DNA from: Chiloscyllium plagiosum
Taxonomy: Eukaryota
NCBI RefSeq assembly: GCF_004010195.1
Contig: NC_057718.1
Span: forward strand, 9,806,872 to 9,870,871
DNA length: 64,000 nucleotides
Reading direction: 5' to 3'
Of the stretch, positions 1,988 through 58,101 are shown piece by piece. The position numbers were made by a program, and so were the translations under genes. Below the pieces are notes generated by a model that searched no databases, had not been told where the DNA came from, and worked only from the letters and a program-made list of their open reading frames with translations. The first letter of the stretch is position 1; each line of letters opens with the position of its first letter.

Positions 1988-2372
1988 TTCTGAAATGCTC
2001 CTGATGTATGGTAGTGTGGCTAGTCCTTTGGGTTGCGGCATGTCCTCGTTCCGTTGTCTTTCTCTTCGGCATCTGTTGATGAAATTGCGCGGGTATCTGT
2101 TTTTGGCGAATACCTTGTATAGGTGTTCCTCTTCCTCTTTTTGCAGTTCTGGTGTGAAAGCAACCACCCCAACACACACAAACGAAGTTGCATCAAGACA
2201 CTATTCAAAAGGGCCACAACACACTGCAGCACACCAGGGACAGGCCACTATAAATGCCGGAGGGAACACCACAGAAGCGCTTCACAGGAGGCTCCCAAGC
2301 ACTGAGGATGTCATCTAGACAGGGGACGAAACGTTTGCAACAAAAATTTCCAGCTCGGCGAACAAAACCACA
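1988..2372. mobile_element. Penelope-like element fragment (family C), internally inverted
   Basis: Minus strand encodes EEEEHLYKVFAKNRYPRNFINRC..ATLPYIRSISE and plus strand encodes SNHPNTHKRSCIKTLFKRATTHCST (PLE RT C-terminal region). These are followed by the same terminal sequence as 44380-44504. Confidence 0.85.
2299..2338 (+). ncRNA. Minimal type-I hammerhead ribozyme motif (family C)
   Basis: GCA-CTGAGGA-T-GTC..GAC-GAAA-CG-TT-TGC; stem I GCA/TGC; palindromic ACGT stem III. Confidence 0.75.
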
Positions 2373-3114
2373 TCTCTTTAAACTCCCACATCTGACAAGA
2401 AGTACATATCACTGCAAAGGCCATTTTTGCTCCTTCACGATCTACAGACACAGAAAATAACACCATCTTATTCCTCTACAAAAAACTGCACCAGTTAAAT
2501 TAATAGCTATGGCTTATATTTTAAGTTTAATCAAGAGACGTATCTCCAAAAACATATAATCAAGAAAGAACCCACTGTACTCACTAATACAGCCTTTCTC
2601 TTGGACAGACTTAAAACAACAATTAACTTATCTGATTCTGTATGGTGAACTTCGCCCAAACCGGTTCCTCCAAGATTAGTTGTGAATTTCACTGTTTGTT
2701 AATTTTCCCAGATGCACTCCGATGTCCAGCGACACATGAATTCAAAAACAGCAAAGGCAATAACTGTGCAGGTTCGTTTTTTTTTTTTCTCTCTCTCTCT
2801 CTCCTGCACTGCCCTCACAATGTGCTTCCTTTGTCTGCTCTTCTCCCTTTTAAAACTGCTGTTGTTTTGACTTTTTTTTTTCCAAAGTTCCAAAACAATG
2901 CAACAGCGTATAAAACAGTAATTACTGCTCCTGGAATTCGAGGAAATTACTTCCAGCACCTAAAATATCTCAAAAAAGGAGCAGCTCTTGCAGCCAGAAA
3001 ATTTTCCCGTCCTCCATCTTGGATTACCCAGAATGATTGAACAAAAATTTCTCCCGCTTTACTATGTGCAATTGGCATGTGTTGGGAGGATTTTCGAGTT
3101 TATGCTTGATCAAA

Positions 3115-3720
3115 AGACCATTAATGTAGGAGCAGAAGTAGATAATTCAGCTAATTGAGACTGCTCTGCCATTCAGTGAGATCATAGTTGATATGATAAT
3201 CATCTACTCCACGTTTATGCCTTTTCCCTATAGGTCTTGATTCCCTTACTGATTAAAAATCTATCAACTCAGCCTTAAATATACTTATTGATCCAGCCTT
3301 GACAATCTTCTGTGGTAAAACTTTCCACAGATTCACTACTGTCTCAGAGAAGAAATTCATTCCTCATCTCTATCTTAAATGTGCGACCCCTTGAACTTAG
3401 GTTATTCCCTCTGGCCCTAGACTCTCCCAGAAGGGGAAGCAGTCTCTCCACAGCATCCAAGAATCTTAAATGTTTCATTAAGGTCACCACTTGTTCTTCT
3501 CAACTCCAATGAATATAGGCCCAACCTACTCAACCTCTCCTCTTAAGAAAATCCCTCTATACCGAGGATCAACCTCAGGAGCCTCTTCTGGACTGCCTCC
3601 AATGCCAGCATATCTTTCCTCAGATAAGGGGACCAAAACTAATCATGATATTCTAGGTGTGGTCTGACTTGTGCCTTTTATATTTTAGAAAGACCTTCCT
3701 ACTTTTATACACCATTTCTT
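3115..3720 (-). mobile_element. Old CR1 3' fragment
   Basis: Degenerate reverse-complement match to the RT C-terminus and 3'UTR of other CR1 copies in the window. Confidence 0.7.
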
Positions 3721-4491
3721 TTGTTTCAATCTATTTGTGCATGTTATGAATGCACCATCCTTGGCCAGAACGAATGCTCCAGTGGCAAGCACTTGACTGA
3801 ATGCATCACAAAAGCCCTTTTAAAGATAGCTGTAGGCATCCCTATATAATTCTAAATACTTTTGACATTTATGTTTTTCCCTTTCCTTCCTACCTTTTCT
3901 GTTGCTTTCTTGTGTTGTCAGTCTCTGAGGACAAACCCAATCGGGCAATATATAAGCTAAGGCCTGGCAGTAATCTAGGCCATTATTGATGGTTGGTCCA
4001 TGAACCTGTATTACTAATAGGACCCAGTAAAGAGACTTGCAACTGGGGAGGGTGGATGAGAATTCTTCCTGCTCCGGTCCAAATAAAAAAATACCACTCA
4101 GAATTTGTCCGCATGTGCCATGTGCTGACAAACTGTTGAGTTTGGAAGAAAGTGCCTTTCGTGGCCTTCAGAAATCTTAAGCACTTTAAAGCCATTGAAC
4201 TACTTTTAGAATGTAATTACTATTGTATTGTAGGGAAATATGGCAACTGATTGGAACGCTCCCAGAAACTGCAATAATTTGAGTAAATCATCTGCTCTAC
4301 TGATATTGTTTGATGAGTATAAACAGTAGCCAGGACACTGGGGAGATGACAAGAATGAAGGAAGTGGATATTGTCTACATGGACTTTAGTAAGGCATTTA
4401 ATGGTACCTCATGGCAGACTGGTACAGAAGGTAAATTCTCATGGGATCCGGGGTGTGCTGGCCAGATGGATGCAGAACTGGCTTGGTCATA

Positions 4492-4661
4492 TAATCAATC
4501 AAAAATCAGATGACATCGGGTTATAGTCCAACAGGTTTATTTGAAACCACAAGCTTTTGGAGCCCCCACTCCTTGCGGTTTCAAATAAACTTGTTGAACT
4601 ATAACCCGGTGTCATGTGATTTTTGACTGTGCACTCCAGTCCAACACTGGCACCTCTACAT
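4492..4661 (+). mobile_element. Fold-back mini-element, family B (putative PLE pseudo-LTR)
   Basis: Imperfect inverted arms plus an unpaired 3' tail. TSD cttggtcata at 4482-4491 and 4662-4671. It splits the CR1 RT at NWLGH|RRQRV. Confidence 0.85.
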
Positions 4662-4833
4662 CTTGGTCATAGAAGACAGAGAGTAGTGGTGGAAGGGTGC
4701 TTTTTGGAGTGGAGATCAATAACTTGTGGTATTCCACAGGGATCAGTATTGGGACCTTTATTCTTTGTAAGATATATAAATGTGTTTTTGAAAGAAAAAA
4801 ATCATTGGGGTTGGTTAGCTTAGTTAGCTGGGT

Positions 4834-5037
4834 TGAAACTTTATTGCTGGAACAGCACAGCAGGTCAGGCAGCATCCAGGGAACAGGAGATTCGACGTTT
4901 CGGGCACAGGCCCTTCTTCAGGCCTGTGCCCGAAACGTCGAATCTCCTGTTCCCTGGATGCTGCCTGACCTGCTGTGCTGTTCCAGCAATAAAGTTTCAA
5001 CTTTGATCTCCAGCATCTGCAGACCTCACTTTCTCCT
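4834..5037 (+). mobile_element. Fold-back mini-element, family A (PLE pseudo-LTR)
   Basis: Perfect 81-bp inverted arms (4832-4912 and 4921-5001), 8-nt spacer, ~36-nt tail. 15-bp TSD cttagttagctgggt at 4819-4833 and 5038-5052. Confidence 0.92.
4890..4922 (-). ncRNA. Minimal hammerhead motif (family A)
   Basis: Reverse complement reads C-CTGAAGA-A-GGGC-CTGT-GCCC-GAAA-CG-TC-GAAT; the 5' strand of stem I is truncated by the inversion. Confidence 0.7.
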
Positions 5038-6944
5038 CTTAGTTAGCTGGGTGCCTGCTTTGTGTTGAGTGACATAAATGATCTGGAGGAAAATGTAAGT
5101 TTGTTTCTGACACCAAAACTGGTGGAGTTGCAGACAGTGAGGAGGCTTGTCTAAGGATACAGTGGGATATAGACAAATTGTACGTTTGGGCAGAGAATTG
5201 ACAACTGGAGTTTAAATGCAAGGTGATCCATTTTGGAAGGTCAAATTCAGATGCAAATTATGCAATAAATGGCAGAATCCTTAGGAGCATTGACATAAAA
5301 AGGGATCTGGGTGTATAGATCCACAGATCCCTGAAAATGGTAATACAGGTGGATTAGGTGGTCAAGGACACGTGCAGCATGATTACCTTCATTGGTCAGG
5401 GCTTTGAATGTAAAAGTTGGCAAGATATGTCACAGCTGTGTAAACCTTAATGAGGCCACATTTAGAATATTGTGTGCAGTTCTGGTTATTGCACTACCAG
5501 AAGGATGTGGATGCTTTGGAGAGAGTGCAGAGAAGATTTACCAGGATGTTGCCTGGTCCGAATGGTTTTAGGAATGAGGAGAGGTTGGATGAACTCTGAT
5601 TGTTTTCACTGGAAAGATGAAGGCTGAGAGGCGACCTGATAGAGGCTTTCAAAATTAAAAGAGGCCTAGATAGAGTGGATAGTCAGAGGCTTTTTCCCAG
5701 GTTACAAGAGGGCAGTTTCAAGGTGAGAGAGGGAAAGTTTAGGGGAGAAATGCAGGGAAAACATTTTACATAGAGAATGGTGAGTGCCTGACGCACTGCC
5801 AGTGGAGGTGGTGGAAGCAGGCATGTTAGCAACATTTAAGATGTATCCTGATAGACACGTGAACAGAGGGATAGAAATCGCATATGGGCAAAAAGTAGTG
5901 GGTCTAAATAAAGAATAGGAATCAGCGCAGACTTGGTGGGCCAAAGGGCCTGTTCCTGTTCCATTTTGTATTGTATTGTAACTCTCCTGGTTTTCTTCAA
6001 AATTTTATAACTGCCTGAGGTGAAAGATGAAGTTTCAGTGAAAGATGGCACCTCTGACATTGCTGCACTCGAATGTCACCATACATTTTGTACTCAACTC
6101 TGGCATGGAACTTAACCTTCTGCTACTCACTGAGCCAACTAATATTAGCTCATTAAAGTCGGTGGTCCCCTGGTCCTGACTCTTGCCAATCATCTGCTTA
6201 AATGTCCTCAACTTAAGAATATGAACTTTGTCCATATAGAATGTAGCATGTCACACCAGAAATTTGGCAGGATACCTTTGTCACTTAATTTGGAGACTTG
6301 TATGATGCTTTATCATAGGTAAAATTTTAAAAATGTTGGATGACTTGCTAATTGAAACATGCCAAGACACAGCTTTCCTATTGCCAGGAACTCTCCACCA
6401 CCCTAGCCCACAGGACTGTCCTTAACATAAGCCCAGGGAGTAGAAAGCTGTTTGATCTCCTGTGCGAGTGATCATTGAGCTCTATTCATGTTCTTGCCCG
6501 GCAACAACATATGTGTAACTTCTGGTATTGACATTGGATACCGATCACGAACAGGAATTTTGGCTATTTTGCCCCTTACAACTAAGCCATTAGTGGTCTT
6601 TGAACCACTGTCCAGAAATAAAGAAACAAAAAAAATGGACCATTATTGTTTTGCTGGAAAAAAAGACACATTTTGTCAATTTTTTTAATTTTACACTCAT
6701 CAGGGCATCCACAAGATCACTAATTTAAAGGGAACAAAATCTATTCTGTATAGTAAAGTAGTGTTTGGTACAGGTATTGCAATGGAAAATACACCAGTGA
6801 GATGATGGCTGACAGTTAACTGATAAGCTTTGTTTAGAACTAAACCATACAGGTTGTTGGTTATCAATTATAACTTATTGGTTGAAGTGTTGCAGTCCTC
6901 CACATGGCAATGTCTGCACGAGTGAGTAACATATGCTGTAAGCT

Positions 6945-7220: not shown

Positions 7221-7224
7221 TTAT

Positions 7225-8108: not shown

Positions 8109-9904
8109 TAAAACATTAGCTGCAATTTAAGCATCTTGTTTTAGAACTCTCCTTTTAACACATTTCACTGCTGTAGAAAATTAGCTCTCAATCATTTGAG
8201 CGAAATAAAATCTGTTAAAATCCATAAAATTTTACAGTCCTTCAGTATAAACTATGCTATAATAAAAAAAAACTAATTGCAAATATAATGGACCAGATGC
8301 ACATGTGGATTTTCTTATCAATTTTACCGACCCAATTAAACTGTAAAAAACCCCAGGGTAGTGTGGTTAGTGATGACACTCATCTTTTCATTTGATAGCT
8401 TTTTCCTGCCTTATTATTAGTACAAGACCTCACTGGTGGTAAAACTTCCAGATTAGATATATTATTTATCAAGCTTCATCTTGAAGAATCATTTTTACAA
8501 TGAATCGTTATGGCTTTTTCAAATACCAAATCAAGCAATATGCTGACCAGATGTCTTATTCGGAGTGTGAGCATATTCACGAAGTTTTGTACCAGTTCTG
8601 TGATGTACTATTCTGCTCCCAGATTTGAACCCTCATCCACTCTTGTGATACATTTGGCTTTTTTTTTCCAGTCAACCTCTTACTGGCCTCCTGAACTCTT
8701 ACATCAACTTATCCAAATATCTACAGTCCTAAGCCTAGCCCCAATCATAAAGCACATAAGGAGGCAATTTATTCCATTGTACCTGTGTTGGTTCTCTAAT
8801 AAACTTATCTAATTAGTTCCTCTCCCCTCCTAACCTTTCTCCATTGTTATAGAAAGATCTCTTTTTACAGTTATTTCTAATTCTCTTCTGAGCATTTCTG
8901 TTAAATCTGCTTCCAAAACCTCTTTCAGTTGGTACATTCCAAATCATAACTCACTGCAATACTTTTAAATCCTCATCTCTCTTCTGGTACTTCTGCCAGT
9001 TATCTTACACTTATATCTTCTCATTCCTGATTTTCCTGTCTGTAGAAACTGTTTTCTCTTATTTATTCTATCAAACCCATTTTAAAATCTCCCTTAATTC
9101 CTTATCTGGTCTAAAAGGTCCCTTATGCCATGTGCCTGCCCTGCTCCTCTATCATCCTCAACGTGCCAAAGACACACTGACCACAGCCACACTGCTCTCC
9201 CACATGTAAACCCTACCATGATCTTGAGGCACACTGCTACCATTTCCAGCGTTCTATTTCCCTCCCCAAATGCTGGTCACCCCATCCTTGTCTGCTTTAT
9301 GTTCCCACGCCCTTCCATTTCACATGAGCAAGGGAACACTTTTTTTCAAGTCCTTCAATCTTGCTACATCTGTCCTCAACTTCAGAATCCTTTCGAAAAC
9401 CATTTTGCTGTCAGTCATTTCTCTTCCTGCACAAGTCTAATTTCCAGTTTTCTGAAATGTCTCTGGACGATTTTGCTGTATTGAAGAACTCTTTCAGTTC
9501 AATGGTAATTTCTTAGTTTATCTGATCTCAGACTATACTGGTTTGCAGTAAACCGACAATCCCTGTGTCACCACAGAGAAAACTCAAGAAAACTCTAGTT
9601 TTAGCATTTGAAATGTCACAATAGTACAGTAGTAAGTGCTTTTTCATGTTTGGGTTTAAGTGAAGCAGAGATAAGGTATGTTTACAACTGTTAGCCATGG
9701 CTCAGTTGATAACGCTCATCTTAGGTTGTGGGTTTGAACCCCAGCCCAGAGAAATGAACTCAAAATCTTGGCTGATCCCCTTCAGCACTGTTGTAAGTAA
9801 TGTCTTTCAAACAAAACTTTTCAGCTGCCCAATATTCATCCTTCAACCAACATTATTAAAAAGAACAAATGATTTGTCTCATTTGTAAATACTGAAGAAA
9901 AATA

Positions 9905-11356
9905 CTCAGATAGGAGAGGTCTTGAATGAGTACTTTTCTTCAGTATTTACAAATGAGAGGGACCATATTGTTGAAGAGGAGAGTATGAAACGGACTGGTA
10001 AGCTAGAGGAGATACATGTTAGGAAGGAAGATGTGTTGGGCATTTTGAAAAACTTCAGGACAGACAAGTCCCCCGGGCCTGACGGGATATATCCTAGGAG
10101 TATGTGGGAAGCAAGAGAGGAAATTGCAGAACTGTTGGCGATGATCTTTTCATCTTCACTGTCAACGGGGGTGGTACCAGGGGACTGGAGAGTGGCNNNN
10201 NNNNNNNNNNNNNNNNNNNNNNNNNNNNNNNNNNNNNNNNNNNNNNNNNNNNNNNNNNNNNNNNNNNNNNNNNNNNNNNNNNNNNNNNNNNNNNNNNNNN
10301 NNNNNNNNNNNNNNNNNNNNNNNNNNNNNNNNNNNNNNNNNNNNNNNNNNNNNNNNNNNNNNNNNNNNNNNNNNNNNNNNNNNNNNNNNNNNNNNNNNNN
10401 NNNNNNNNNNNNNNNNNNNNNNNNNNNNNNNNNNNNNNNNNNNNNNNNNNNNNNNNNNNNNNNNNNNNNNNNNNNNNNNNNNNNNNNNNNNNNNNNNNNN
10501 NNNNNNNNNNNNNNNNNNNNNNNNNNNNNNNNNNNNNNNNNNNNNNNNNNNNNNNNNNNNNNNNNNNNNNNNNNNNNNNNNNNNNNNNNNNNNNNNNNNN
10601 NNNNNNNNNNNNNNNNNNNNNNNNNNNNNNNNNNNNNNNNNNNNNNNNNNNNNNNNNNNNNNNNNNNNNNNNNNNNNNNNNNNNNNNNNNNNNNNNNNNN
10701 NNNNNNNNNNNNNNNNNNNNNNNNNNNNNNNNNNNNNNNNNNNNNNNNNNNNNNNNNNNNNNNNNNNNNNNNNNNNNNNNNNNNNNNNNNNNNNNNNNNN
10801 NNNNNNNNNNNNNNNNNNNNNNNNNNNNNNNNNNNNNNNNNNNNNNNNNNNNNNTTGGTGTACTGTGTGCAGTTCTGGTCGCCTCATTTTAGGAAAGATG
10901 TGGAAGCTTTGGGGAGGGTGCAGAGAAGATTTACCAGGATGTTGCCTGGAATGGAGAATAGGTCGTACGAGGATAGGTTGAGAGTGCTAGGCCTTTTCTC
11001 ATTGGAACGGAGAAGGATGAGGGGTGACTTGATAGAGGTTTATAAGATGATTAGGGGAATAGATAGAGTAGACAGTCAGAGACTTTTTTCCCGGGTACAA
11101 CAGAGTATTACAAGGGGACATAAATTTAAGGTGAAGGGTGGAAGGTATGACGGGATGTCAGGGGTAGGTTCTTTACTCAGAGAGTGGTGGGGGCATGGAA
11201 TGCGCTGCCTGTGGGAGTGGCAGAGTCAGAATCATTGGTGACCTTTAAGCGGCAATTGGATAGGTACATGAATGGGTACTTAAACTAGGACAAATGTTTG
11301 GCACAACATCGTGGGCCGAAGGGCCTGTTCTGTGTTGTATTGTTCTATGTTCTATG
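9905..11356 (+). mobile_element. 5'-truncated CR1 LINE spanning an assembly gap (N 10197-10854)
   Basis: LNEYFSSVFT..KSPGPDGIYPR before the gap and [18 protein letters not shown] after it; tail tgttctatgttctatg. Confidence 0.93.
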
Positions 11357-12199: not shown

Positions 12200-14925
12200 T
12201 TGGCTACTACCTGTTCCAGGATATAGACGCTTCAGACAGGACAGGGAGGGAAGTAAAAGGGGGGTGGAGTTGCATTGCTGGTCAGGAATGATATCACAGC
12301 TGTGCTAAAGGAGGACACTATGGAGGGCTTGGGTAGTGAGGCATTATAGGTGGAGCTGAGAAATAAGAAGTGTGTAGTTACATTGTTGGGGCTGAATTAC
12401 AGACCTCCCAACAGTGAGTGTGAGGTAGAAGAACAAATAGATAACAGATTATGGAAAGATGTAGCAGCAATAAGGTAGTGGTGATGGGAGATTTCAATTT
12501 TCCCAACGTTGACTGGGATACACTTAGCACCAGAGGTCTGGATGGGATAGAATTTGTAAAAAGCGTCCAGGAGAGTTTTCTAGAACAGTGTGTCAATAGT
12601 CCGACCATGGAAGGGGCCATATTGGACCTGGGAAATGAGCCAGGACAGGTGGTAAGGTTGGGGTGGGGGACTTCTTTGGGAACAGTGACCACAATTCTGT
12701 AAGTTTTAGAATACTCATAGACAAAGATGAGAGTGGTCCTAAGGGAAGAATACTAAACTGGGCTAAGGCCAATTATATCAAAATTAGGCAGGAGCTGGGA
12801 AATGTGGATTGGACACAGCTATTTGAAGGGAAGTCCATATTTGAGATGTGGGAGGCTTTCTAGGTTAAAGATAGTGCAGGATAGGCATGTCCCATTGAAG
12901 GCAAAGGATATGAAGGGCAAGATTTGTGAACTGTGGATGACAGGAGAAATCTGTCAAGAGGAAAAGGGAAGCATACATAAGGCCTAGGCAGCTAAGAACA
13001 GAATGGGCCCTGGAGAAATATCGGAACACTCGGACCAGTTTTAAAAGAGGAATCAAGTGGGCTAAAAGGGGTCATGAAATAGCTTTAGCGAGCAGAATTA
13101 AGGAGAATCCCAAAGCATATTATTCTTGTATAAGAAGCAAGCAGGTAACTAGAGAAAGGATTGGTCCACTAAAGGATAATGAAGGAAGGCTGTGTGTCGA
13201 ACCTGAAAGAGTGGGTGAGATTCTGAATGATTACTTTGCATCTGTATTCACTGAGGAGGTGAACATGATGAATGTTGAGATTAGAGTTGGAAGTTTGATT
13301 AGTTTGGATCACGTTGACATAAGTAGGGAAGATGTGTTGGGTAGGCTAGAGGTTATTATGGTGGACAACAATCCCCAGGACCAGATGGGATCTATCCCAG
13401 GTTGCTGAGGGAGGAAAGAGAGGAAATAGCTGGGGCCCTGACGGATATCTTTGTGGCTTCCTTAAACACAAGTGAGGTGCCAGAGGACTGGAAGGTTGCT
13501 CACGTTGTCCCCCTGTACAAGAAGGGTAGTAGGGATATTCCAGGTAACTACAAACCAGTGAGCATGACGTCGGTGGTGGCAACATTGTTGAAGGTACTGA
13601 GGGATAGGATCTATTCATATTCAGAAAAGAATGGGCTTATCAGTGATAGGCAACATGGTTTTCTGCGATGGAGATCGTGCCTTACCAATTAATAGAGTTC
13701 TTTGAGGAAGTGACCAAGTTGATAGATGAAGGAAGATTGATGTCATATACATGTACTTTAGCAAGGCATTTGATAAGGTTTCCTATGGTAAACTAATAGA
13801 GAAAGTGAAGTCACATGGTATGCAGGGTGTTCCAGCTAGGTGGATAAAGAACTGGTTGAGCAACAGGAGACAGAGAGTAGTAGTTGAAGGGAGTTTCTTG
13901 AAATGGAGAAAGGTGACCAGTGGTGTACCACAGGGATCAGTGCTGGGGCCACTGTTGTTTGTGACATACATAAACGATCTGGAAGAGGGCACTGCTGGAA
14001 TAATCAGCAAGTTTGCAGATGACACGAAGATTGGTGGAGTAGCAGAAAGCATAAGGGACTGTCAAAGAATACAGGAGAATATAGATAGACTGGAGAGTTG
14101 GGCGGAAAAGTGGCAGCTGGAGTTCAATCCCGACAAATGTGAGATGATGCATTTAGGCAAGACTAATTCAAGAGTGAATTATACAAGGAACGGAAGAGCC
14201 CTGGGAAAAGTTGATGAGCAGAGAGATCTGGGAGTGCAGATCCATTGTACCCTGAAGGTTGCTGCACAGGTGGAGAGAGTGGTCACGAAGGCATATAGTA
14301 TGTTTGCCTTCATCGGATGGGTTATTGAGTATAAGAGCTGGCAAGACATGTACAGGACATTGGTTCTGCCGCATTTAGAATACTGTGTACAGTTCTGGGC
14401 GCCACATTACCAAAAGGATATGCACGCTTTGGAGAGGGTGAAGAGAAGGTTTAAGAGGATGTTGCCTGGTATGGAAGGTGCTAGCTATGAAGAGAGGTTG
14501 AGCAGGTTAGGTTTGTTTTCATTAGAAAAAAGGAGATTGAGAGGGGACCTGTTTGAGGTTTACAAAATCATGAAGGGTGTAGACAGGGTAGATAGAGATA
14601 AGCTTTTTTGCAGGGTGATGGATTCAGCAACGAGAGGTCATGCTTTCAAGGTGAGAGGTGAAAAGTTTAAGGGGGACACACGCGGCAAGTACTTCACACA
14701 GAGGATGGTGGGTGTCTGGAACACGTTGCCAACAGAGGTGGTAGAGGCAGGCACAGTAGATTCATTTAAGGTGCGTCTGGACAGATGCATGAGTAGGTGG
14801 GGAGCAGAGGGATACAGATGCTTAGAAATTGGGTGACAGGTTTAGACAGTAGATTTGGATCGGCTCAGGCTTGGAGGGCCGAAGGGCCTTTTCCTGGGCT
14901 GTAAATTTTCTTTGTTCTTTGTTCT
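12200..14925 (+). mobile_element. CR1 LINE, nearly complete but frameshifted ORF2 (APE + RT) with 3'UTR
   Basis: VMGDFNFP and NSDHN (APE); FSKAFDKV, GVPQGSVLGPLLF and FADDTK (RT, ORF 13751-14836); tail ttctttgttctttgttct. Confidence 0.96.
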
Positions 14926-43675: not shown

Positions 43676-43880
43676 TTTTAAAAAGAAGGTCTGCTTCAGG
43701 AAAGTGAAAATAATTAAGGATACCAACTTGAAGCATTAACCAACTCTGAGCTCTCTTCACAGATGCTGGCAGACCTGCTGAGTATTTTCCAGTATTTTGT
43801 GTTTTTCAAAGTTTGTGAAAAGATTTATAGCTCGGGTGCTCATTGTCGTGGTTCTATTCGCCGAGCTGGGAATTTGTGTT

Positions 43881-43920
43881 ACAGATGTTTCGTCCCCTGA
43901 CTAAGTGACATCCTCAGTGC
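43881..43920 (-). ncRNA. Minimal hammerhead motif (family C)
   Basis: Reverse complement GCA-CTGAGGA-T-GTC..GAC-GAAA-CA-TC-TGT. Confidence 0.7.
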
Positions 43921-44428
43921 TTAGGAGCCTACTGTGAAGCGCTTCTATGATCTTTCCTCCGGCATTTGTAGTGGTTTGAATCTGACGTTTCCAGTTGTCA
44001 GTTCCAGCTGTCTGTTGCAGTGGCCGGTATATTGGGTCCAGGTTGATGTGCTTATTGATTGAATCTATGGATGAGTGCCATGCCTCCAGGAATTCCCTGG
44101 CTGTTCTCTGTTTGGCTTGTCCTATGATAGTAGTGTTGTCCCAGTCAAATTCATGTTGCTTGTCATCTGCGTGTGTGGCTACTAAGGATAGCTGGTTGTG
44201 TCGTTTTGTGGCTAGTTGACTACACCAACGACAAGCCAAACAGAGGACAGCCAGGGAATTCCTAGAGGCATGGCACTCATCCACAGATTCAATCAATAAG
44301 CAGATCGACCTGGACCCAATATACTGGCCACTGCAACGGACAGCTGGATCTGACAACCGGAAGCGGCAGATTCAAACCACTACAAATGCCGGAGGAAAGA
44401 TCATAAGCGCTTCACAGGAGGCTCCCAA

Positions 44429-44468
44429 GCACTGAGGATGTCACCTAGACAGGGGACGAAACATCTGT
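44429..44468 (+). ncRNA. Minimal hammerhead motif (family C)
   Basis: GCA-CTGAGGA-T-GTC-A-CCT-AGAC-AGG-G-GAC-GAAA-CA-TC-TGT, with an extended stem II. Confidence 0.75.
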
Positions 44469-44524
44469 AACACAAATTCCCAGCTCGGCGAACAGAGCCA
44501 CAACATTTTGTGTTTTTGTTTCAA

Positions 44525-45250
44525 AGAACAGCACAGTGCAGGAACAGGCCTTGGGCCTACCAAGCCTATGCTGACACATAACACCTTCCGAAACTAAAAA
44601 CTCCTTGCGTCCATGCAATCCATAATCCCTCTATTCCCTGCCTATTCATGTATCTGTCAAGGTGTCTCTTAAGCATTGCTATTGTATATGTTTCTCCACA
44701 GCCCTGAAGAAGGGATACACCTGAAACGTCGACTTCTCCACCTCCTGATGCTGCCTGGCTTGCTGTGTCCTTCCAGCCTCTCGCCTCTCTATTTTGGATT
44801 CCAGCATCTGCAGTTTTTTTTTTTGTGTCTCTCTCACTTCCTCTGGCAGCGCATTCTAGGCACATACCACTCCCTGTGCTTCCAAATAAACCTGTTGGAC
44901 TATAACCTGGCACTGTGTGATTTTTAATTTAGTTTAAAAAAAGATTTGCCTCTCAAGTCTCCTTTAAACTTTCCCTTGTTTACCATAAACCGATGTCCCC
45001 TAGTGACTGAGATTTCTGCCCTGAGAAAAAGACTCCAACTCTCCGTTCTATCTATGCCACTCATAATTCTGTAAATTTCTATCAGGTCGCCCCTCAGCCT
45101 TTGATGTTCAAGTGAAGGCAAAACCGCATTTGTCCAATCTCTCCTTGTAGCCAATGCCCTCCAAACCAGGCAACCGCCTGGCAAACCTATTCTGTACCCT
45201 CTCCAAAGCATTTATATTGTTTTGGTAGTGTGGTGACTAGAACTATATTG
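44525..45250 (-). mobile_element. CR1 3' fragment with nested family-A-related (44701-44825) and family B (44875-44930) pieces
   Basis: QRLRGDLIEIYRIMSG..TRGHRF on the minus strand; the nested pieces match other copies in the window. Confidence 0.8.
44703..44733 (+). ncRNA. Minimal hammerhead motif (family A variant)
   Basis: C-CTGAAGA-A-GGG-ATACA-CCT-GAAA-CG-TC-GAC; the insert begins at the core. Confidence 0.65.
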
Positions 45251-45914
45251 ATTTCAAGGTTCCAAAATAATTTGCTTTTGTAGGGGCTTTTGTAATTTGC
45301 ATTGCTTAGTTATTAGCATGAAGGCACAAATGAATTAAAATCCAACTGTTTACATGTTATCTCTTTTAGTATCATTTATTTTTGAAATCTGACATTCCTC
45401 ATGAGAGATAATTATCAATGCCTGTCACACTCAATGACTCAAATGTGGCTCAGTGGCTCGTCAGTCCATTGCTGAGTCCAAGTAGATTTGTAAAGTTTTG
45501 AAATTATGATGAATTTAGCACCACATTTGTTCTCCTTGATTAGGGAAAATGGGTCAATGTGTGTCTGTTGGTTGAAAATTGTTTGAAGGCTACACAGTTA
45601 GGGTTATATAGTTGCCAATATTCATTGTTCAGCATCAAACATGGATTTATTAGGTATTGACAGTGGGTGATGAGCGCATTTGAGACGAGGTATCAGTGCA
45701 CTTGAGATCATGTATCAGCACTATTGAGACTAGGTATCTTAATGAGAATTGGGAATAATAAAACATGAAGTGAAATACGAATTGTAACAAATTACAGAGC
45801 AAAAGAAAAATGTTAATACATCAGTGAAAACCTTGTTGAATTTACTATGTTTGAGGATTTTTTTTTTGAGACTTTGCCCCAAAGTCTCATGCTGAATCTA
45901 TGATTACTACTGAG

Positions 45915-46160
45915 ACATAAAGTTAAAAATCACACAACACCAGGTTATAGTCCAACAGGTTTAATCCGAAGCACTAGCTTTTGGAGCGCCACTCCTTCAT
46001 CATCACAATCACCTGATGAAGGAGTGGCGCTCCGAAAGCTAGTGTGCTTCCAATTAAACTGTTGGACTATAACCTGGTGTTGTTGTTGGACTATAACCTG
46101 GTGTTGTGTGATTCTTAACTTTGTACACCCCAGTCCAACACTGGCATGTCCAAATCATGT
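45915..46160 (+). mobile_element. Fold-back mini-element, family B
   Basis: Inverted arms meet at about 46003-46012; 3' tail; internal ~24-bp duplication; TSD ctactgag (45907-45914, 46161-46168). Confidence 0.88.
46010..46044 (+). ncRNA. Minimal hammerhead motif (family B), all core bases intact
   Basis: CAC-CTGATGA-A-GGAG-TGGCG-CTCC-GAAA-GC-TA-GTG; stem I CAC/GTG, palindromic AGCT, predicted cleavage after 46041. Confidence 0.82.
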
Positions 46161-48749
46161 CTACTGAGGTACAGTGTGATAGTCCTGTTGAAGAGTCTGT
46201 GTTGGATGCTAATTCAGCCATAACCTAATAATTTTGTGCTTTCAAAGGAGCAATGACAAAACTTCCAATATTAGGAATCCCGGAGAAGTGAGAAGGCCCT
46301 TAATGCATCCAGTGATGATAATAACATTCTTGAAGTTTCTGTGCTATCTCACTGCACTGCTTCCTTTGGATGAGTGTGTTGAACAATGAGGAGAGGTTTT
46401 TATTCACTGATGCGATGTGGGTGTCTCTGGCTAGGCCAGCATTCATTGCCCAAGCCTATTTGCTCAGAACGCTGTCAAGAGTCAGCTATATTGCTGTGCA
46501 TCTGGAGTCACATGCAGCCACACCAGCTAAGATTGGCAGATTTGGTGGATAGTCTGAGGCCTTTTCCCAGGGTGGAAAAGTCAACTATGTGATGGCACAG
46601 GTTTGCAGTGAGTGGGGAAAAGTTTAGGTGAGATGTGCAGGGAAAATTTTCCTCACATTGAGTGGTGGGTGTCTGGAATGCACTGCCAGTGGGGATGGTG
46701 GAAGCAGGTATGTTCGCAATATTTAAGGCGTAGCTTGATCGGCAAATGGAAGGAGTCTAACTAAGGACGTGGAATCAGCGCAGGCGTGGTGGGCCAAAGG
46801 AGCTGTTCCTGTGCTGTTTTGTATTTCCCTTCCCAAAGGACTTGAGTGAGGTCTGTTTCTTTACAGCAATTGACACTGGTTACGTGGTTGCCAATAGGCT
46901 AGCTTTTAGTACAAACTTTTAAATTGATTTCAAATGTCACTATCTGTTATAGTGGGGATTAGAAACCACATCCCCCTAGGGTCCTGAATTACTAGCCCAG
47001 TGACATTTCCGCAATGCCACAATTTTCCCTCAGATTAAATACAATGGACCATTATCTTCAGGATTTTAAAAGAATGAGCAATGGTGTGATTGGAATGATA
47101 AAGTCTTTGAGGGTTTGGCAAGATATATGCTGAGAAGCTGTTGCTCCTCGTTTGAGAGCCTAGAGATAGGGATCGCAGCTTCAGAATATACTGTATAGGT
47201 GGCCGTTTAGGACTAAGATGAAAAAATGTCTCTTTTCTCAGATGTTTGTAAATCTTTGAAATCCTCAACCCAGAATGCTGTGGATGCCTAGGCATTGTGT
47301 GTATTCAAGGCTGAAATGGGAATAAATTTCAGGCACTCAAGGGTTTGAGAGAAAGGGATGAGGCAGAAGTGGAATTGAAGTGACCTTACTGAATGGCTGA
47401 GTGGATGTGAGGAGCCATGTGGCTCACATTCTTGGGTACTGTAAGCTACATGGAGTGTTTCACCAGAAGATTAGTCCCTCTAGTGCCAAAACAATCATCC
47501 ACTATCAATCGTACGCTTGCATGTTTTCCAACAATTTACAACGTGGTGACTTTAGAAAATCCAATCACTTTATGTTTACTTTGGGGGGTCTTTGAAGGGG
47601 TGTTAATTTCTGCTCAACATTAAGATTTAAATTTAAATTAAGAAGCGAAGATGCACGACCAGTGTTGTAGCACGGGTTACCGCCTGATATGAATAGGAGA
47701 AGATGAGACAAATGAGTCAGCATTGAAATTACCTCAAATTCTGAAAGCTCACGTATGGTGGAAACGGAAGGTTTAAGGCTGAGAAAAATCCATGCTTTGG
47801 ACAAACTTTTGATTCCGCTGATCAAGGGTTAGGGAAGGGTTAGGGATTGAATGTCATGTAGCATGTCAAATCAGAAGGAACTGCAGGATACAGGCTGTCC
47901 ACGTTGACTGACCATGTTAATATTGAAACAATAGAGAGAGGTTGGCTCTAATGATGATATTGTTTCTCATTGAATTACATCCAATGAATTTAGGAAGTGA
48001 GTTGTAAAGCCTTTAGTTTTAAAAGCTGTGCAAACATGAATTCTTGGCTGGAGCTTGTCCTCCTGGCAACCGAGCCTAGACAGACAGAGTCAGCCTTTGG
48101 GACAGGTCCAGTTGTTGCCTTGGACTTCATTCACTTACAGTTGATTTCAAAATCAAATGGCTGAAGCACAAAGTTTATTTTTCTTTCCCCCTTGCCTGAG
48201 CTTGTCTTGGAGCCAATTGGATGGTGAACCTAGATTCTAATCTCTGTCAGTGCTGCTGTAAGCTTGCTCTGAGCTTTCATGAGAATAGTCACACTCCTCT
48301 TTACTACTTGACTCTTTACATTAGTAGCTAAGCAATCATCTCAATTTTTGTTTTCTAGTGATATAAAATAGAGTCACCAGAGAGGCCATTGTAAAGTGAA
48401 TAGAAATGTGTGTCTTATGCAAATATATGAAGAATTTTCATTTCTACAGTCTTTTTTATTAACCACCTGATGTTGCAAGTGTTTCACAGTCAATGAATGG
48501 CTTCTGAAGTGCGGTCAGTAGTAACTTAAGGAGCCTCTGCTGTCAATTACATACAGTAAACACCCACAAACCAGCTGTGAAATAGGCGAGTTGATAATCT
48601 GATCTAGATTTTGGCTGAGGTATGATCTTGATCAAGATATTGGAAGAACTCTGCTGCTACTCTGTAATAGTGTAACAGGAGCTTTTATGTTCATCTGAGG
48701 AGGTAGTCAGGATTTCACTTTAATATCTCAAATGAAAGATAGCAACTCT

Positions 48750-50449: not shown

Positions 50450-50967
50450 CACGATATGGAGGAACCGGTGTTGGACTGGGATGGACAAAGTTTAAAAATC
50501 ACACAACATCAGGTTGAAGTCCAACAGGTTTATTTGGAAGCACAAGCTTTTGGAGCACCGCCCCTTCAGGTAGCTGTGGGTCAGGACCATAAGACACAGA
50601 ATTTTTATAGCAAAAGATTACAGTGTCATGCAACTGAAATGATATTTTGAACAAACCTAGATTGCTGTTAAGTCTTTCATCTTTTAGAATAGGTTGTAGG
50701 TTTTGCTTCATTAATATGTAAATCCCAGAACAATTATTAAGTCACATTCTATTTTACTGAAAAAGTAAACAACCCTGCAGGCAGTCAATTCATGTAATAT
50801 TTTAATAAATTCCTCTTTGGAAGTAGAACTAGTCTGACTCAAAATTTGAATACAGGCACACTCTAACCTCACACCTTTGATGCTTTGTCTGAGTTGAGAT
50901 GTCTCCTTTTTAAATAAAACCTTAAGTTATCTCGTGAATCTGATTTAAAAGAAGTTCTGGGATTTAC
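50450..50967 (-). mobile_element. Longer family B element 3' region with decayed hammerhead (about 50540-50572)
   Basis: Shares tail and pseudo-LTR with 45915-46160, then extends ~400 bp of AT-rich sequence. Confidence 0.75.
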
Positions 50968-53970: not shown

Positions 53971-54753
53971 AGTGACCCCGACTTGTCGACTTTCTAATTT
54001 CTTAGAACTGACCCCGATGATTCTGCCTCTTTTTTCAAAACAATACAAATTTCAAGAATGGTACATATCGCACCCCTTTCACCACAATATAAACAGGTTC
54101 ATGTGAAACAGAACTGCTAAACAAGAATTCTACCTGATGTTTCAGAGCCCAGGGAAAAGTTACTTTGTGATGCAGGATAGGATTACCTGGGGATAATGTA
54201 GGATACTGCACTTAGGTAGAGAAGTGATATCATCAGTCAATGAAAATAAATCTAGAAGTTAGTTACAGTCATTCCTTTCTTCTGCATTATTGTCCTTTCC
54301 CCTTCTCAATAGAAGCTGGAGTAAGCCATTTTTAAAATTCCTTCCTTCCTTCCTCTCTACCCCCAAGCATTGCTGTGAAGACCAAATTTCTAATGGATGC
54401 AAAAGTCTCCAATAGTCGAGGAAGGAAGCTTACATTTAACACTCGGTGACAGTTTCTGCAGCTGGCCTTCCTTCCTGAACCATATATCACCCTTGGTTGC
54501 CTGTGCAACTGTCTGCTCTGATTTAGAGGCGTTACATTCTCTGTCTCTCTCTCTTCCTCTCCACCTGCCTCCACCTCACCAAATGATGACCTTAAATACA
54601 TTTTTTAGCATAATGAACCCTTATTTGGGCTGTTGTTGTAACTGTTCCAATCCACAATTATATGCTAGGTTGTTTTGCCACACAGGTGGGGCTGGGGACA
54701 TATCTCAGTGAATAAGGCCCAGCTGTGTTGCTCCCTGTATTAATGTGATTATA

Positions 54754-55660
54754 GCTGAAAATGTGTTGCTGGAAAAGCGCAGCAGGTCAGGCAGCATCCA
54801 GGGAACAGGAGAATCGACGTTTCGGGCATAAGCCCTTNNNNNNNNNNNNNNNNNNNNNNNNNNNNNNNNNNNNNNNNNNNNNNNNNNNNNNNNNNNNNNN
54901 NNNNNNNNNNNNNNNNNNNNNNNNNNNNNNNNNNNNNNNNNNNNNNNNNNNNNNNNNNNNNNNNNNNNNNNNNNNNNNNNNNNNNNNNNNNNNNNNNNNN
55001 NNNNNNNNNNNNNNNNNNNNNNNNNNNNNNNNNNNNNNNNNNNNNNNNNNNNNNNNNNNNNNNNNNNNNNNNNNNNNNNNNNNNNNNNNNNNNNNNNNNN
55101 NNNNNNNNNNNNNNNNNNNNNNNNNNNNNNNNNNNNNNNNNNNNNNNNNNNNNNNNNNNNNNNNNNNNNNNNNNNNNNNNNNNNNNNNNNNNNNNNNNNN
55201 NNNNNNNNNNNNNNNNNNNNNNNNNNNNNNNNNNNNNNNNNNNNNNNNNNNNNNNNNNNNNNNNNNNNNNNNNNNNNNNNNNNNNNNNNNNNNNNNNNNN
55301 NNNNNNNNNNNNNNNNNNNNNNNNNNNNNNNNNNNNNNNNNNNNNNNNNNNNNNNNAACTCAGCACCGCCTTCCTAACCTGCAATCTTCTTCCCGACCTC
55401 TCCGCCCCCACCCCAGTCTGCCCTATCACCCTCACCTTGACCTCTTTCCACCTATCACATTTCCGACGCCCCTCCCCCAAGTCCCTCCTCCCTACCTTTT
55501 ATCTTGGCCTGCTGGACAAACTTTCCTCATTCCTGAAGAAGGGCTTATGCCCGAAACATCGATTCTCCTGTTCCCTGGATGCTGCCTGACCTGCTGCGCT
55601 TTTCCAACAACACATTTTCAGCTCTGATCTCCAGCATCTGCAGACCTCACTTTCTCCTCC
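54754..55660 (+). mobile_element. Family A PLE with inverted pseudo-LTR, spanning a gap (N 54838-55356)
   Basis: The left end is the reverse complement of the right pseudo-LTR; 14-bp TSD ttaatgtgattata (54740-54753, 55661-55674). Confidence 0.92.
55529..55564 (+). ncRNA. Minimal hammerhead motif (family A)
   Basis: ATTC-CTGAAGA-A-GGGC-TTAT-GCCC-GAAA-CA-TC-GATT. Confidence 0.75.
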
Positions 55661-56555
55661 TTAATGTGATTATATTGTGGTTGTGTGACCAAACAGTCTA
55701 AGGCACTAGATTTGGGTTCCAACGGCCCTTGTGGTACAGTGGTTATGACCCTATCTCTGAGTCAGAAGGTCGGAGTTCAAGTCCCACCTGCACCAGAGGT
55801 GTCTAATAACATCTCTGAACAGGTTGGCTAGAAAATATCTACAATAGCCATACCCATTTGTAGAGATGACTGTGAACCAGCTGAAGGTAAGGAACAAGAG
55901 TCAGGTTTGTATCATCTCACAATGAGACTTTTATTTTACTGTTCCCAGTCTTGTCTGGTCTCACCCCTCCGCACTTGGGGAAGGTTTGTTATCGTTAGAA
56001 CCAGTGTAGTTTTCCATGCCACGAGCCTAGTGATGGCTGCCATATTCTGTATAGAGGGTCAGAAAGCAAGCAACCGCATGTGTTTAGAGCATTTTCATGA
56101 ACTGATGACATTTCAAAGTATTCTGTGGCCCGTGAATCACCTTTTGTTTTAAGGTGAAGTCGCTGTTGTGATATAGTAAATGCAGCAGCAGATTTATACA
56201 CAGTACGCTCCCACAGGCAGCAGTGTGAAAAAGTAGAGATGATCAGTCTTATTTATTTCTGACGTTTGTTTGAGAAGCAACTTTTTTGTTCTTGTCACCA
56301 GGGAAGGTTGACCCCCCACCCTGTTCTCATAGATCTTCTCTCACTTCCTTATACCCCTCCATCTCCACATTTATGTTGTGCAGAGCTTCAAGAGAGCTAA
56401 GAAAACCCGGAGCTAACCTGGATGCTTATAAATGTGCTCCTTGTCCAAAAGAAACCCGATGATGTAGTAAATAACTGAAAGGCATTTTTAAAAGTTTGAT
56501 CACATCTCACAATAGCCTAATATTGTGAAGTAAAAGATATTGGGAGAATACTTTT

Positions 56556-57030
56556 CAGATGTTCATAGCTCCTTGAAAGTGGAGTTGCAGGTAGGTAGGA
56601 TAGTGAAGAAGGCGTTTGGTATGCTTTCCTTTATTGGTCAGAGTATTGAGTACAGGAGTTGGGAGGTCATGTTGCGGCTGTACAGGACATTGGTTAGGCC
56701 ACTGTTGGAATATTGCGTGCAATTCTGGTCTCCTTCCTATCGGAAAGATGTTGTGAAACTTGAAAGGNNNNNNNNNNNNNNNNNNNNNNNNNNNNNNNNN
56801 NNNNNNNNNNNNNNNNNNNNNNNNNNNNNNNNNNNNNNNNNNNNNNNNNNNNNNNNNNNNNNNNNNNNNNNNNNNAGAGGCATTTGGATGGGTATATGAA
56901 TAGGAAGGGTTTGGAGGGATATGGGTCGGGTGCTGGCAGGTGGGACTAGATTGGGTTGGGATATCTGGTCGGCATGGATGGGTTGGACCGAAGGGTCTGT
57001 TTCCATGCTGTACACCTCTATGACTCTATG
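56556..57030 (+). mobile_element. CR1/HER1-like 3' fragment with gap (N 56768-56875)
   Basis: [19 protein letters not shown]; tail ctctatgactctatg. Confidence 0.92.
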
Positions 57031-58010
57031 TTCTTAATGTAGCCAAACATCATTTTTATGGGGTTTTTTTGTGCTGCTGAGCAAATTCCCAAAGCATCTC
57101 TACAACCGTTGCAGCTTCAGCTAGAGAACCAGGTGAGTAAGCAGGTGGGCATTTTACAGACCACTCGTGAAAATCTTCCTTTTCTTTCATTGATGCATTT
57201 TGTTTGTTATCCTGATCCACGCCTCAGAAATGCTTGCGGTTATCTAGGGCAGTTTTATTGGTTTCCTACTGCATGGTTATTGTGTGATGTCGTAGGTAAC
57301 ATGACTACCTGGACCTTCTAATCAACTTTTCGGGTGTCATCTGTATTAGTCCAAGACATTCCTTGACTTGCTTCCACCATCTCTCGTTTCATTTCTAGAG
57401 TTAAAGAAAGATCTGGTAAAAGCTGGGTAACAGTCTGGCTTTAGCTGCATTGAAATATCTCTTGGTGCATTCCAGATGACAGCGAGAGCAGTTTGCAGGC
57501 ATTGCCCCAGGCTTGCCTGTGCTTTCACAATCTAGTGAGGCCTAACTCTGTTTCAGTTGCTTGCACAGCCATATGACTAATCCACAGTTGCCAATCCAGA
57601 ACTTTGATTTATCATGTGAATCTTTTTTCTATTGGGTTTCCTATTCTGCGGAAGGTGGCTGATGGTTTTGCCACAAATGGAGTTTCAGGTTTTCCGAATT
57701 TGACTGTTTGTGATTTCAGTATATGTCCAAGTAGTATGCCACTCTATTTTGGATGTATATCACTGTCCCTTCATTGCTGGTCAAAACATTTGGAAACTGG
57801 CAACTTCAATGTGCAGATGGCTCGTGAAGAATTCCCATCAGCTTTCTCAAGGTCCTTGAAGTATGAGGAATAAATGCTAGCTGAGCTGGTGATGCTCCTA
57901 TTTAGAAAGAGAACTTCTAAAATCTGTTACAGGGGTTGCAAACTGGAAGTGATGAGAGGGAGGTGAACAGAGTTGAGATTTAATTGCTGTGTGTAAATGG
58001 ATATATGAGT

Positions 58011-58101
58011 TTAGATCAGAGTGGTGCTGGAAAAGCACAGCAGGCAGCATCCGAGGAGCAGGAAAATTGACGTTTCGGGCAAAAGCCCTTCATCAGGAAT
58101 A
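58011..58101 (-). mobile_element. ~90-bp family A-type pseudo-LTR insert whose 5' end is the hammerhead (58065-58100)
   Basis: Reverse complement ATTC-CTGATGA-A-GGGC-TTTT-GCCC-GAAA-CG-TC-AATT, then pseudo-LTR sequence. Confidence 0.82.

Follow-up and report, generated by a model that had tools for sequence, protein, structure and literature searches.

Minimal hammerhead ribozymes (min-HHRs) are a described component of Penelope-like elements (PLEs), and the account closest to our material, that of Cervera and De la Pena (2014; PMC4209133), gives four features of such motifs that do not depend on a search descriptor: consensus families within one genome, an unpaired base between A9 and 10.1, a G10.1-C11.1 pair and palindromic positions 15.2-16.2. 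The motifs are located in PLE flanking repeats, known in that account for fishes, the coelacanth and Xenopus, with several consensus families per genome, mostly as solitary copies and opposite-strand pairs 100-700 bp apart. PLE insertions, for their part, are described as strongly truncated at the 5' end, with an inverted copy, itself 5'-truncated, alongside and a tail of 30-40 bp at one end (PMC8557442), and the min-HHRs are reported to act as dimers or together with a protein, and poorly in vitro (PMC4209133; PMC6765202; PMC11167929). Here we consider a window of 64,000 nucleotides (the whole stretch analysed, 64 kb of the 3.56-Gb assembly of the shark Chiloscyllium plagiosum; contig NC_057718.1, positions 9,806,872 to 9,870,871), in which three sequence-unrelated repeat families, A, B and C, carry hammerhead motifs. 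Very probably, as far as sequence comparison can tell, the motifs represent minimal type-I hammerheads that form a component of the PLE 3' module, the part that belongs to the pseudo-long terminal repeat (pseudo-LTR), with the cleavage step proposed by analogy. What carries this reading is the anatomy of the motif, the huge number of copies, the constancy of position and strand in three 3' modules unrelated to one another, the scars of insertion, and the link of families A and C to open reading frames (ORFs) for a GIY-YIG endonuclease.

Families A, B and C each have all four of the descriptor-independent features, and the likeness to the metazoan PLE motifs extends to the type-I topology, the CUGANGA and GAAA boxes, the loopless palindromic stem III, the presence of several consensus families in one genome, and the mixture of solitary copies and opposite-strand pairs (PMC4209133). 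Every min-HHR sequence feature was found in the window copies except the length of helix I. The host here is a shark, and the generic pattern described below has 165,793 matches in this genome versus about 4,000 hammerheads in the coelacanth and about 9,000 in Xenopus, the descriptors used in the two studies being different (PMC4209133).

A second described system is the Poseidon element PAc of Anolis carolinensis, in which both DNA strands are cut and extended, and reverse transcription begins internally, at two neighbouring sites 111-118 nt from the start of the ORF, with the hammerhead cut at +26 (PMC11167929). Our families resemble PAc in having the hammerhead at a fixed distance upstream of two putative start sites of reverse transcription, with a tail of 30-40 bp between the sites; the cut precedes the start sites by 85-92 nt in PAc, and here the predicted cut precedes the short 3' end by 39-63 nt and the long one by ~79-100 nt. 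Cutting and extension of two strands would also fit the head-to-head pairs seen here, and in neither case do reads end at the cut site. The PAc ORF, in contrast, starts at stem II whereas the family C ORF ends in loop II, and PAc cutting is protein-assisted and sensitive to mutation of C3 and G8 (PMC11167929). Animal non-LTR retrozymes, finally, are small and non-coding, carry type-I hammerheads and have their origin in PLE pseudo-LTRs, and the preprint of Li et al. (2026; 10.64898/2026.07.22.740005) reports vertebrate retrozymes in one cartilaginous fish among 31 vertebrates. Retrozymes, however, form tandem arrays and circular RNAs, unlike the dispersed singles and inverted pairs with target-site duplications of our array-free window. 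Our literature search returned no publication joining a shark genome, Penelope and a hammerhead ribozyme.

Hammerhead cores in the window and in the genome

An initial annotation, made from the letters of the window, had listed ten hammerhead cores, and CTGANGA, a hairpin, GAAA, two bases, T and a non-G base are indeed present at 10 of 10 of these sites on the strand given. Their exact spans are 2299-2338, 44429-44468, 44702-44733, 46010-46044 and 55529-55564 on the plus strand, and 4890-4921, 27462-27497, 33078-33113, 43881-43920 and 58065-58100 on the minus strand. Helix II reads GGGC/GCCC in family A, GGAGC/GCUCC in B and GUC(A)CCU/AGG(G)GAC in C, and a single unpaired base, A in families A and B and U in C, stands between A9 and 10.1. 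This bulge together with a paired helix II closed by G10.1-C11.1 is found in nine of the ten copies, the exception being the copy at 44703, whose helix II is degraded (GGGATACACCT). Stem III is the palindrome ACGU in A and C and AGCU in B, with 15.2-16.2 palindromic (CG or GC) in all three families, and H17 is G at none of the ten sites, family A having C, family B having A and family C either C or U. The bulged base after A9, the G10.1-C11.1 pair and the palindromic 15.2-16.2 all lie outside the demands of the search pattern.

These data bear out the annotation's view that minimal type-I PLE hammerheads occur in three sequence-unrelated families, each of which has the four published features (PMC4209133) and PLE insertion scars, and they also agree with its description of stem III as ACGT or AGCT, or ACAT in CpG-decayed copies, the last being the case (as ACAU) in four of the ten, at 27462, 43881, 44429 and 55529. 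Its description of the other stems calls for some revision. For family A it had given the stems ATTC/GAWT and GGGC/GCCC; the latter stands, but the former is never realised as a 4-bp pairing in the window, since the copies with both strands have ATTC/GATT (2 bp, a U.U mismatch and 1 bp), apart from ATTC/AATT at 58065, where position 1.1 has changed from G to A, and GAAT occurs only in the copy at 4890, which is without ATTC. Helix I has 3 bp in families B and C. Pairing of the stems, which it had taken to be kept throughout, is kept in most copies, but not in helix II at 44703, nor at position 1.1 at 58065, and at 4890 the 5' strand of helix I is replaced. Loop II does vary across subfamilies as claimed, but the loop AATT, one of the variants it had named, was not seen.

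How far the motifs stand above chance was gauged with two descriptors. The first, which demands at least 3 contiguous pairs in helix I and a palindromic stem III, passes only 2 sites, at 2302 and 46013. The second, modelled on the literature description of the motif, demands that 1.1-2.1 be paired, that at least 3 of 4 positions of helix I be paired, and that helix II have at least 3 bp with a bulge of 0-1 nt; it passes 4 distinct sites with a palindromic stem III and 8 when the palindrome is not demanded and CpG-decayed stem III is allowed. It fails at 4890, where an inverted-repeat junction takes the place of the 5' strand of helix I, and at 58065 with its change at position 1.1. On the reversed window the same descriptor returned 0 matches in the strict and 0 in the relaxed form, and in 100 first-order Markov shuffles it gave a mean of 0.02 (strict) and 0.08 (relaxed) matches per window, with a maximum of 1. 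Copies beyond the initial ten are a decayed A2 hammerhead at 36143-36178 (minus strand), an A1 hammerhead at 54812-54837 (minus), a decayed B hammerhead at 50541-50573 (minus) and a B-like hairpin at 4513-4608, A1 and A2 being subfamilies of A.

Across the genome, exact-core matches number 52,878 for family A, 21,178 for B and 11,601 for C, with a reversed control of 0 for each; the count for A combines the subfamily that has CUGAAGA and loop UUAU with the one that has CUGAUGA and loop UUUU. We also counted a generic pattern, in which CTGANGA, N, G, 6-24 N, C and GAAA are followed by ACGT or AGCT from A15.1; it has 133,505 and 32,288 matches, 165,793 in total, versus 103 and 14, or 117 in total, in the reversed controls. 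The genome listings contain further subfamilies with loops CUGU, UCAU and UAAU, with N7 = C in part of B, and with a C-like form that has CUGAUGA. N7 differs among subfamilies (A, U, G, C) and loop II varies, and A1 and A2 agree at the other 26 of 28 positions of the A core pattern. Identity between A1 and A2 is 33-34 of 36 in the hammerhead and ~52-56% upstream of it, a comparison that is partly circular because the copies were picked by an intact core. A descriptor scan of 272,640 bases of fetched genomic loci found 37 A, 32 B, 35 C and 8 other matches; by eye, two of these 8 represent further families (L045 and L057), and six are decayed or variant A, B or C. As an observation beside these counts, the A-type copy C1:2971216-2971242 has helix II GAGC/GCUC for GGGC/GCCC, a two-sided change with pairing kept, and single-side variants (GAGC/GCCC) recur among the same genome matches listed.

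The 3' module, its insertion scars and its coding links

On the sense strand the module runs from the end of an ORF for reverse transcriptase (RT) and endonuclease, or from a non-coding leader, through the hammerhead and a spacer to a first 3' end, with an optional tail beyond. The short 3' end lies 62-63 nt (A), 52-55 nt (B) or 39 nt (C) past the predicted cut, and the second, long 3' end adds a tail of 35-40 nt, always at one fixed offset. Among unique sampled genomic copies the tail is present in 5 of 15 A1, 6 of 15 A2, 11 of 30 B and 20 of 30 C; an inverted 5'-truncated arm is found at the 5' end of 8 of 15 A1 and 9 of 30 B copies, and head-to-head C pairs are frequent in the genome listing. 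The optional tail at one end, the inverted 5'-truncated copy at the 5' end and the heavy 5' truncation are all traits of PLE insertions, and the place of the hammerhead on the sense strand is that of a PLE 3' module, A2 and C following GIY-YIG ORFs on the same strand.

Within the window, five insertions are bounded by target-site duplications of 13-15 bp and a sixth by an 8-bp repeat, and each inverted pair has the long tail on one arm only. The first, a snap-back insertion of the A subfamily with loop CUGU at 4832-5037 (minus strand), lies between 13-bp duplications (CCAGCTAACTAAG, at 4819-4831 and 5038-5050); the core of its hammerhead (4890-4921) is intact, the inverted arm stands in place of the 5' strand of helix I, and only this arm has the long tail. 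At 27368-27607 (minus) an A2 insertion of 240 nt, consisting of a 54-nt inverted arm and a 5'-truncated copy, lies between 15-bp duplications (TCGAAGGGCAGAATG) in the 3' untranslated region (UTR) of a long interspersed nuclear element (LINE), and in its hammerhead (27462-27497) stem III has decayed to ACAU. The A1 snap-back insertion at 33020-33234 (minus), between 14-bp duplications (TATGTCCATACTTA), has a fully intact hammerhead at 33078-33113, an inverted arm with the long tail and a sense arm with the short end. Two of the five are pairs on opposite strands. The family C head-to-head pair at 43807-44504 is one insertion between 13-bp duplications (ATTTTGTGTTTTT); both its hammerheads, 43881-43920 (minus) and 44429-44468 (plus), have stem III ACAU, the C-terminal ~100 residues of the endonuclease precede each, and the long tail is on the minus arm only. 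The A1 inverted pair at 54754-55660, again one insertion (14-bp duplications TTAATGTGATTATA at 54740-54753 and 55661-55674), has one hammerhead at 54812-54837 (minus), cut by the N run 54838-55356, and one at 55529-55564 (plus) with stem III ACAU, the long tail being on the plus arm. The sixth is the family B snap-back insertion at 45915-46160 (plus) with its 8-bp CTACTGAG repeats at 45907-45914 and 46161-46168; its hammerhead (46010-46044) is intact, with stem III AGCU and H17 = A; the sense arm is the one with the long tail, and inside this tail the family B 3' module carries an exact 24-nt duplication at 46060-46107.

Further motif-bearing copies include an A2 copy with a long tail at 36049-36235 (minus), whose hammerhead has GAAA changed to GAAG and GCCC to GUCC; a diverged A-like hammerhead at 44702-44733 (plus), with the core boxes intact and helix II degraded (GGGAUACACCU); an A2 hammerhead at 58065-58100 (minus) with intact core and stem III ACGU, in which the change at position 1.1 breaks the first pair of helix I; a decayed B copy at 50503-50573 (minus), with CUGAUGA shortened and GAAA now AAAA; and, at 4513-4608, a B-like snap-back hairpin from which CUGANGA has been removed by the junction and which Rfam matches as a microRNA-like hairpin far below the gathering score.

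The coding link is closest in family C. Its hammerhead overlaps the last six codons of the ORF (...STEDVT, with the stop in loop II), and in the window the C-type ORF stops within the hammerhead at each of the three C sites; at 2299-2338 (plus), a copy of the H17 = U subfamily with intact core and stem III ACGU, the six codons read STEDVI before the stop codon in loop II. Longer genomic C copies read ...NVVYKIPCKDCTKHYIGQTGR...HEH...HEFDWDN..., and the C-type peptide matched 14 longer proteins, the best of them from carpet sharks at 81-88% identity. In the C-type relatives P0007, P0009 and P0014 an RVT_1 domain is followed by GIY-YIG, and the C-type ORF aligns with residues 388-523 of P0009 at 58% identity, spanning the Pfam GIY-YIG match of that protein. 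A further C-type piece, inverted and 5'-truncated, lies at 1988-2200 (minus), adjoining the N run 1946-1987; it covers the linker before the endonuclease (...LPYIRSISE), has 150 scored genome matches, the best of them with E-values from 5.9e-43 (the window's own copy) to ~5e-28, and is also readable in protein P0001. We note separately that P0004, P0005 and P0012, gene models of related sharks that bear the names of host proteins (a MAP3K7 isoform, a 5'-nucleotidase domain protein and a CUE domain protein), align with the C-type PLE endonuclease over 53-86% of the query, with 61-92% identity, and are either exonised PLE pieces or annotation artefacts.

In family A, the relatives P0015 and P0016 have an RT remnant, a C..CxxC linker and GIY-YIG, the GIY-YIG match of P0015 being at E = 2.5e-4 with 21.7 bits versus a cut-off of 22.6, and in the genomic copies L011 and L024 a GIY-YIG ORF lies directly upstream of the A2 hammerhead on the same strand. 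Through these relatives of the C- and A-type peptides, both families can be assigned a C-terminal GIY-YIG endonuclease, the domain that, with a CCHH motif, marks PLEs. To judge from sequence, the CxxC linker would make the A-type Neptune-like, and its absence from the C-type would make the latter Poseidon-like. The window has one A-type GIY-YIG copy, a frameshifted endonuclease remnant followed by an A2 3' module at 43110-43673 (plus; GIY-YIG part 43110-43525), from which the hammerhead and ~52 nt are missing (43540-43600). The sequence after this gap resumes at most 1 nt from the predicted cut site (after C17), and the gap might record template cleavage with subsequent template switching, or have arisen simply by chance. 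The initial annotation had tied A and C to GIY-YIG/RT coding sequence in the window itself; the GIY-YIG part of this claim stands, with remnants at the three C sites and at 43110-43525, but the RVT_1 ORFs of the window are of LINE type and not of PLE type.

Family B, which it had considered an unclassified PLE or a non-autonomous ribozyme element, is harder to place. Sampled B copies have at most ~340 nt in common upstream of the hammerhead, AT-rich and closed in all frames, and the unmasked long copies L048, L037 and L032 have the same 5' end point ~340 nt upstream; at L031, L051 and L054 part of the upstream sequence reads N. At L047/L048, the B leader is preceded by a decayed A-like PLE ORF, which breaks off at the point where its endonuclease part ought to start, and an inverted B arm flanks the whole. 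The proposed non-autonomous status is thus plausible as regards the long unmasked copies that end in non-coding DNA, but sits less well with the one copy that runs into a PLE ORF, several other flanks being N. The PLE-type insertion scars are what suggests that family B, too, is a PLE 3' module, and it is most likely a non-autonomous or endonuclease-deleted passenger of ~0.5 kb.

From published PLE work we may sketch how such copies would arise. The two 3' ends would represent two internal start sites of reverse transcription, and extension of both cut DNA ends would produce the head-to-head pairs. A hammerhead whose stem III is only a palindrome (ACGU or AGCU) would be active only when two tandem copies within one transcript pair with each other, or with help from the element's protein, and the active hammerhead would then cut after H17 and so process multi-unit transcripts. 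Most of the window copies are, on this reading, dead, 5'-truncated insertions carried passively in host transcripts, and family B is most likely a non-autonomous passenger of the same PLE machinery.

Cleavage and the rival explanations

A number of observations weigh against the placement of these motifs as hammerhead ribozymes of PLEs. Helix I, of 3 bp in B and C and of 2 bp, a mismatch and 1 bp in A, is shorter than the 4-5 bp described for PLE motifs in PMC4209133. No ORF of the window encodes a PLE-type RT, RVT_1 upstream of the endonuclease being found only in database relatives; the only two RVT_1 ORFs of at least 90 residues in the window, 13730-14833 (plus) and 28045-28731 (minus), are LINE-type, and neither shows similarity to the PLE protein P0007 (best E 0.35). 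A Pfam scan of the window's own endonuclease peptides gave zero GIY-YIG matches, and a search of solved structures with these peptides gave nothing useful. Four upstream genomic stretches are all 5'-truncated within or just before the endonuclease, and although a genome search for a full-length PLE copy had long open frames among its matches, the single long genomic copy examined (L095) reads N over 2,117 of 3,401 bases, across the frame. Likewise, the window contains no direct tandem pair of one family and no partial tandem with direct pseudo-LTRs, the sampled copies being truncated insertions that have no bearing on the arrangement of full-length members. Rfam has hammerhead families for type I, II, III, HH9 and HH10. 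Their catalytic core is like that of our motifs, but the Rfam scan of the window gave zero matches at gathering score, and among the 23 matches at E up to 10 none was a hammerhead, these being microRNA-like and small-nucleolar-RNA-like hairpins on snap-back repeats; the result is expected because the motif is without the stem III hairpin that those models expect, yet it counts as a miss all the same.

Folding and RNA reads belong with these points. In six single-copy stretches that were folded, only helix II was recovered, for A and B, with z-scores from -2.05 to +1.27; that a monomer does not adopt the hammerhead fold is expected because its stem III is a bare palindrome. From RNA run X20, 1,878 reads were aligned, representing ~2% of the run, and run X21 gave no reads. 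Over an A1 copy, the X20 reads have no piled-up ends and no depth step at the predicted cut 55560|55561, X20 being a single-cell poly(A) library and hence a weak test of a 5'-OH cut end. Of every 100 reads, 92 run into unlike flanks, and both orientations are present, a pattern that fits passive co-transcription. Depth does rise about fourfold, from ~122 to ~453, at 55529/55530, the 5' edge of helix I, where loose ends and opposite-strand joints are also found, and this step matches the 5' boundaries of A1 in genomic DNA, where 14 of 15 unique copies start at most 12 nt upstream of CUGA and 8 are joined there to an inverted arm.

This edge speaks for the strongest of the rivals, which we nevertheless regard as unlikely. 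In it the motif would be retained for its fold, as a handle or to delimit the template RNA, and not as a ribozyme: the PLE protein would recognise the hammerhead-like fold, or the fold would mark where the copied RNA begins, and the cut at H17 would have no part in transposition. Both the A1 boundaries and the step in X20 mark the edge of the fold and leave the cut site unmarked, and in some B and A head-to-head pairs the arms meet bluntly at the 5' edge of the hammerhead. Moreover, in the experiments reported for Anolis PAc, catalytic hammerhead mutants left insertion in vitro unchanged and no reads ended at the cut site (PMC11167929), and according to Craig et al. (PMC8557442) PLEs without hammerheads proliferate well. 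In family C, however, the 5' boundaries lie away from the hammerhead edge (automated ungapped boundaries proved unreliable for B and C because of subfamily indels, and only the A1 figures and the inverted-arm counts are used here). A hairpin handle would also have no need of what has been kept: all positions of the catalytic core are retained in three unrelated families and in more than 165,000 copies, with N7 and loop II left free, and related PLE hammerheads are reported to cut as dimers or with a protein (PMC4209133; PMC11167929).

A related proposal, which we put forward tentatively and rate as rather doubtful, concerns A1 and in part B. The amplifying unit might here be just the hammerhead and the RT entry site, 94-130 nt, with the fold, and not the H17 cut, setting or protecting the 5' end of the copied RNA or serving as a grip for the PLE protein; the template RNA would then begin exactly at the 5' edge of helix I. 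If true, such a unit would explain why the core is intact in more than 130,000 copies although neither the 5' ends of insertions nor the RNA reads show a trace of cleavage, and also the blunt meeting of head-to-head arms at the ribozyme edge.

Families B and A1 might instead be animal non-LTR retrozymes, i.e., small non-coding units that are transcribed in tandem, cut themselves, are circularised and are copied by a PLE RT. This would account for the common non-coding 5' end of B (L048, L037, L032) and for the size of A1, mostly a unit of 94-130 nt, and the preprint cited above (10.64898/2026.07.22.740005) traces vertebrate retrozymes back to PLE pseudo-LTRs, one cartilaginous fish being among their hosts. 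Head-to-tail joints do exist, but they are few, with 3 reads in X20 and single contigs in X2, and no circular-junction reads stand out in the RNA reads examined. The window has no tandem array of hammerhead units; the copies sampled are scattered, single or in inverted pairs, and carry target-site duplications and PLE tails, scars of target-primed insertion of linear RNA, and the B copy L047/L048 continues upstream into a decayed PLE ORF. On balance we find the retrozyme explanation quite improbable.

Far less credible is a third view, in which family A would be the 3' UTR of the abundant LINEs, or a short interspersed element derived from them, with no relation to PLEs. The A2 hammerhead at 27462 does lie ~170 nt (27497 versus 27666) downstream of the end of a LINE ORF2 with RVT_1, in a window saturated by LINE fragments. 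The A2 unit there is, however, a separate 240-nt insertion with its own 15-bp target-site duplication inside the LINE 3' UTR, other A2 copies follow GIY-YIG ORFs (L011, L024 and 43110-43673 in the window), and the relatives of the A-type ORF have an RT remnant and GIY-YIG. Family A as the 3' UTR of the neighbouring LINE is ruled out by that duplication and those GIY-YIG links.

Chance matches to a loose pattern inside repeats, which a short pattern, a weak helix I, the silence of Rfam and the fact that all copies of one family count as one event might suggest, can be practically dismissed, because at least 3 independent families and at least 2 more in the flanks (L045, L057) have the same core, bulge, G10.1-C11.1, palindromic stem III, strand and place in a PLE 3' module, and the shuffles and the reversed pattern yield only the 0.02-0.08 matches per window and the 117 versus 165,793 given earlier.

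Surrounding repeats and significance

LINE fragments, with RVT_1 and Exo_endo_phos endonuclease domains, fill the window (13730-14833 on the plus strand, 28045-28731 and 298-789 on the minus strand, and ~20 more), and PLE insertions sit within several of them. The LINE ORFs have ~20 relatives in the window, and their C-terminal domain we take to be of CR1 type. In the LINE endonuclease region there is an exact 151-bp tandem duplication at 112-413 (2.0 copies, 100% match). N runs occur within or beside PLE coding parts, in the window at 1946-1987, 10197-10854, 54838-55356 and 56768-56875, and at the loci L031, L051, L054 and L095; one of them separates both arms of a duplication-flanked insertion, and in another case the entire frame of a long copy is N. 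The AT-rich, near-perfect inverted repeat at 9881-9954 scores as a mir-9457-like hairpin at 38.8 bits, the gathering score being 90, and probably represents a small inverted-repeat element. The ORF at 18877-19155 (minus) has a weak uDENN match (E = 4.8e-4) that narrowly misses the cut-off, and could be a host exon.

Hammerhead-bearing PLEs, including solitary motifs and opposite-strand pairs, have been known since Cervera and De la Pena (2014), and the families described here are new members of that group; no new type of element or ribozyme is revealed, and the finding is remarkable mainly for the copy number and for the boundary of A1 at the 5' edge of the hammerhead. It adds a cartilaginous-fish genome with well over 100,000 PLE hammerhead motifs, at least 10 times the coelacanth and Xenopus counts of the founding paper, with the reservation that the descriptors differ, and it makes clear that standard Rfam scans miss all of these motifs. 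While its overall importance is modest, the insertions delimited by target-site duplications constitute a natural record of where the PLE RT starts, at two fixed 3' ends, and where it stops, which for A1 coincides with the hammerhead's 5' edge, and this record might be used to examine if template cutting by the ribozyme ever takes place.

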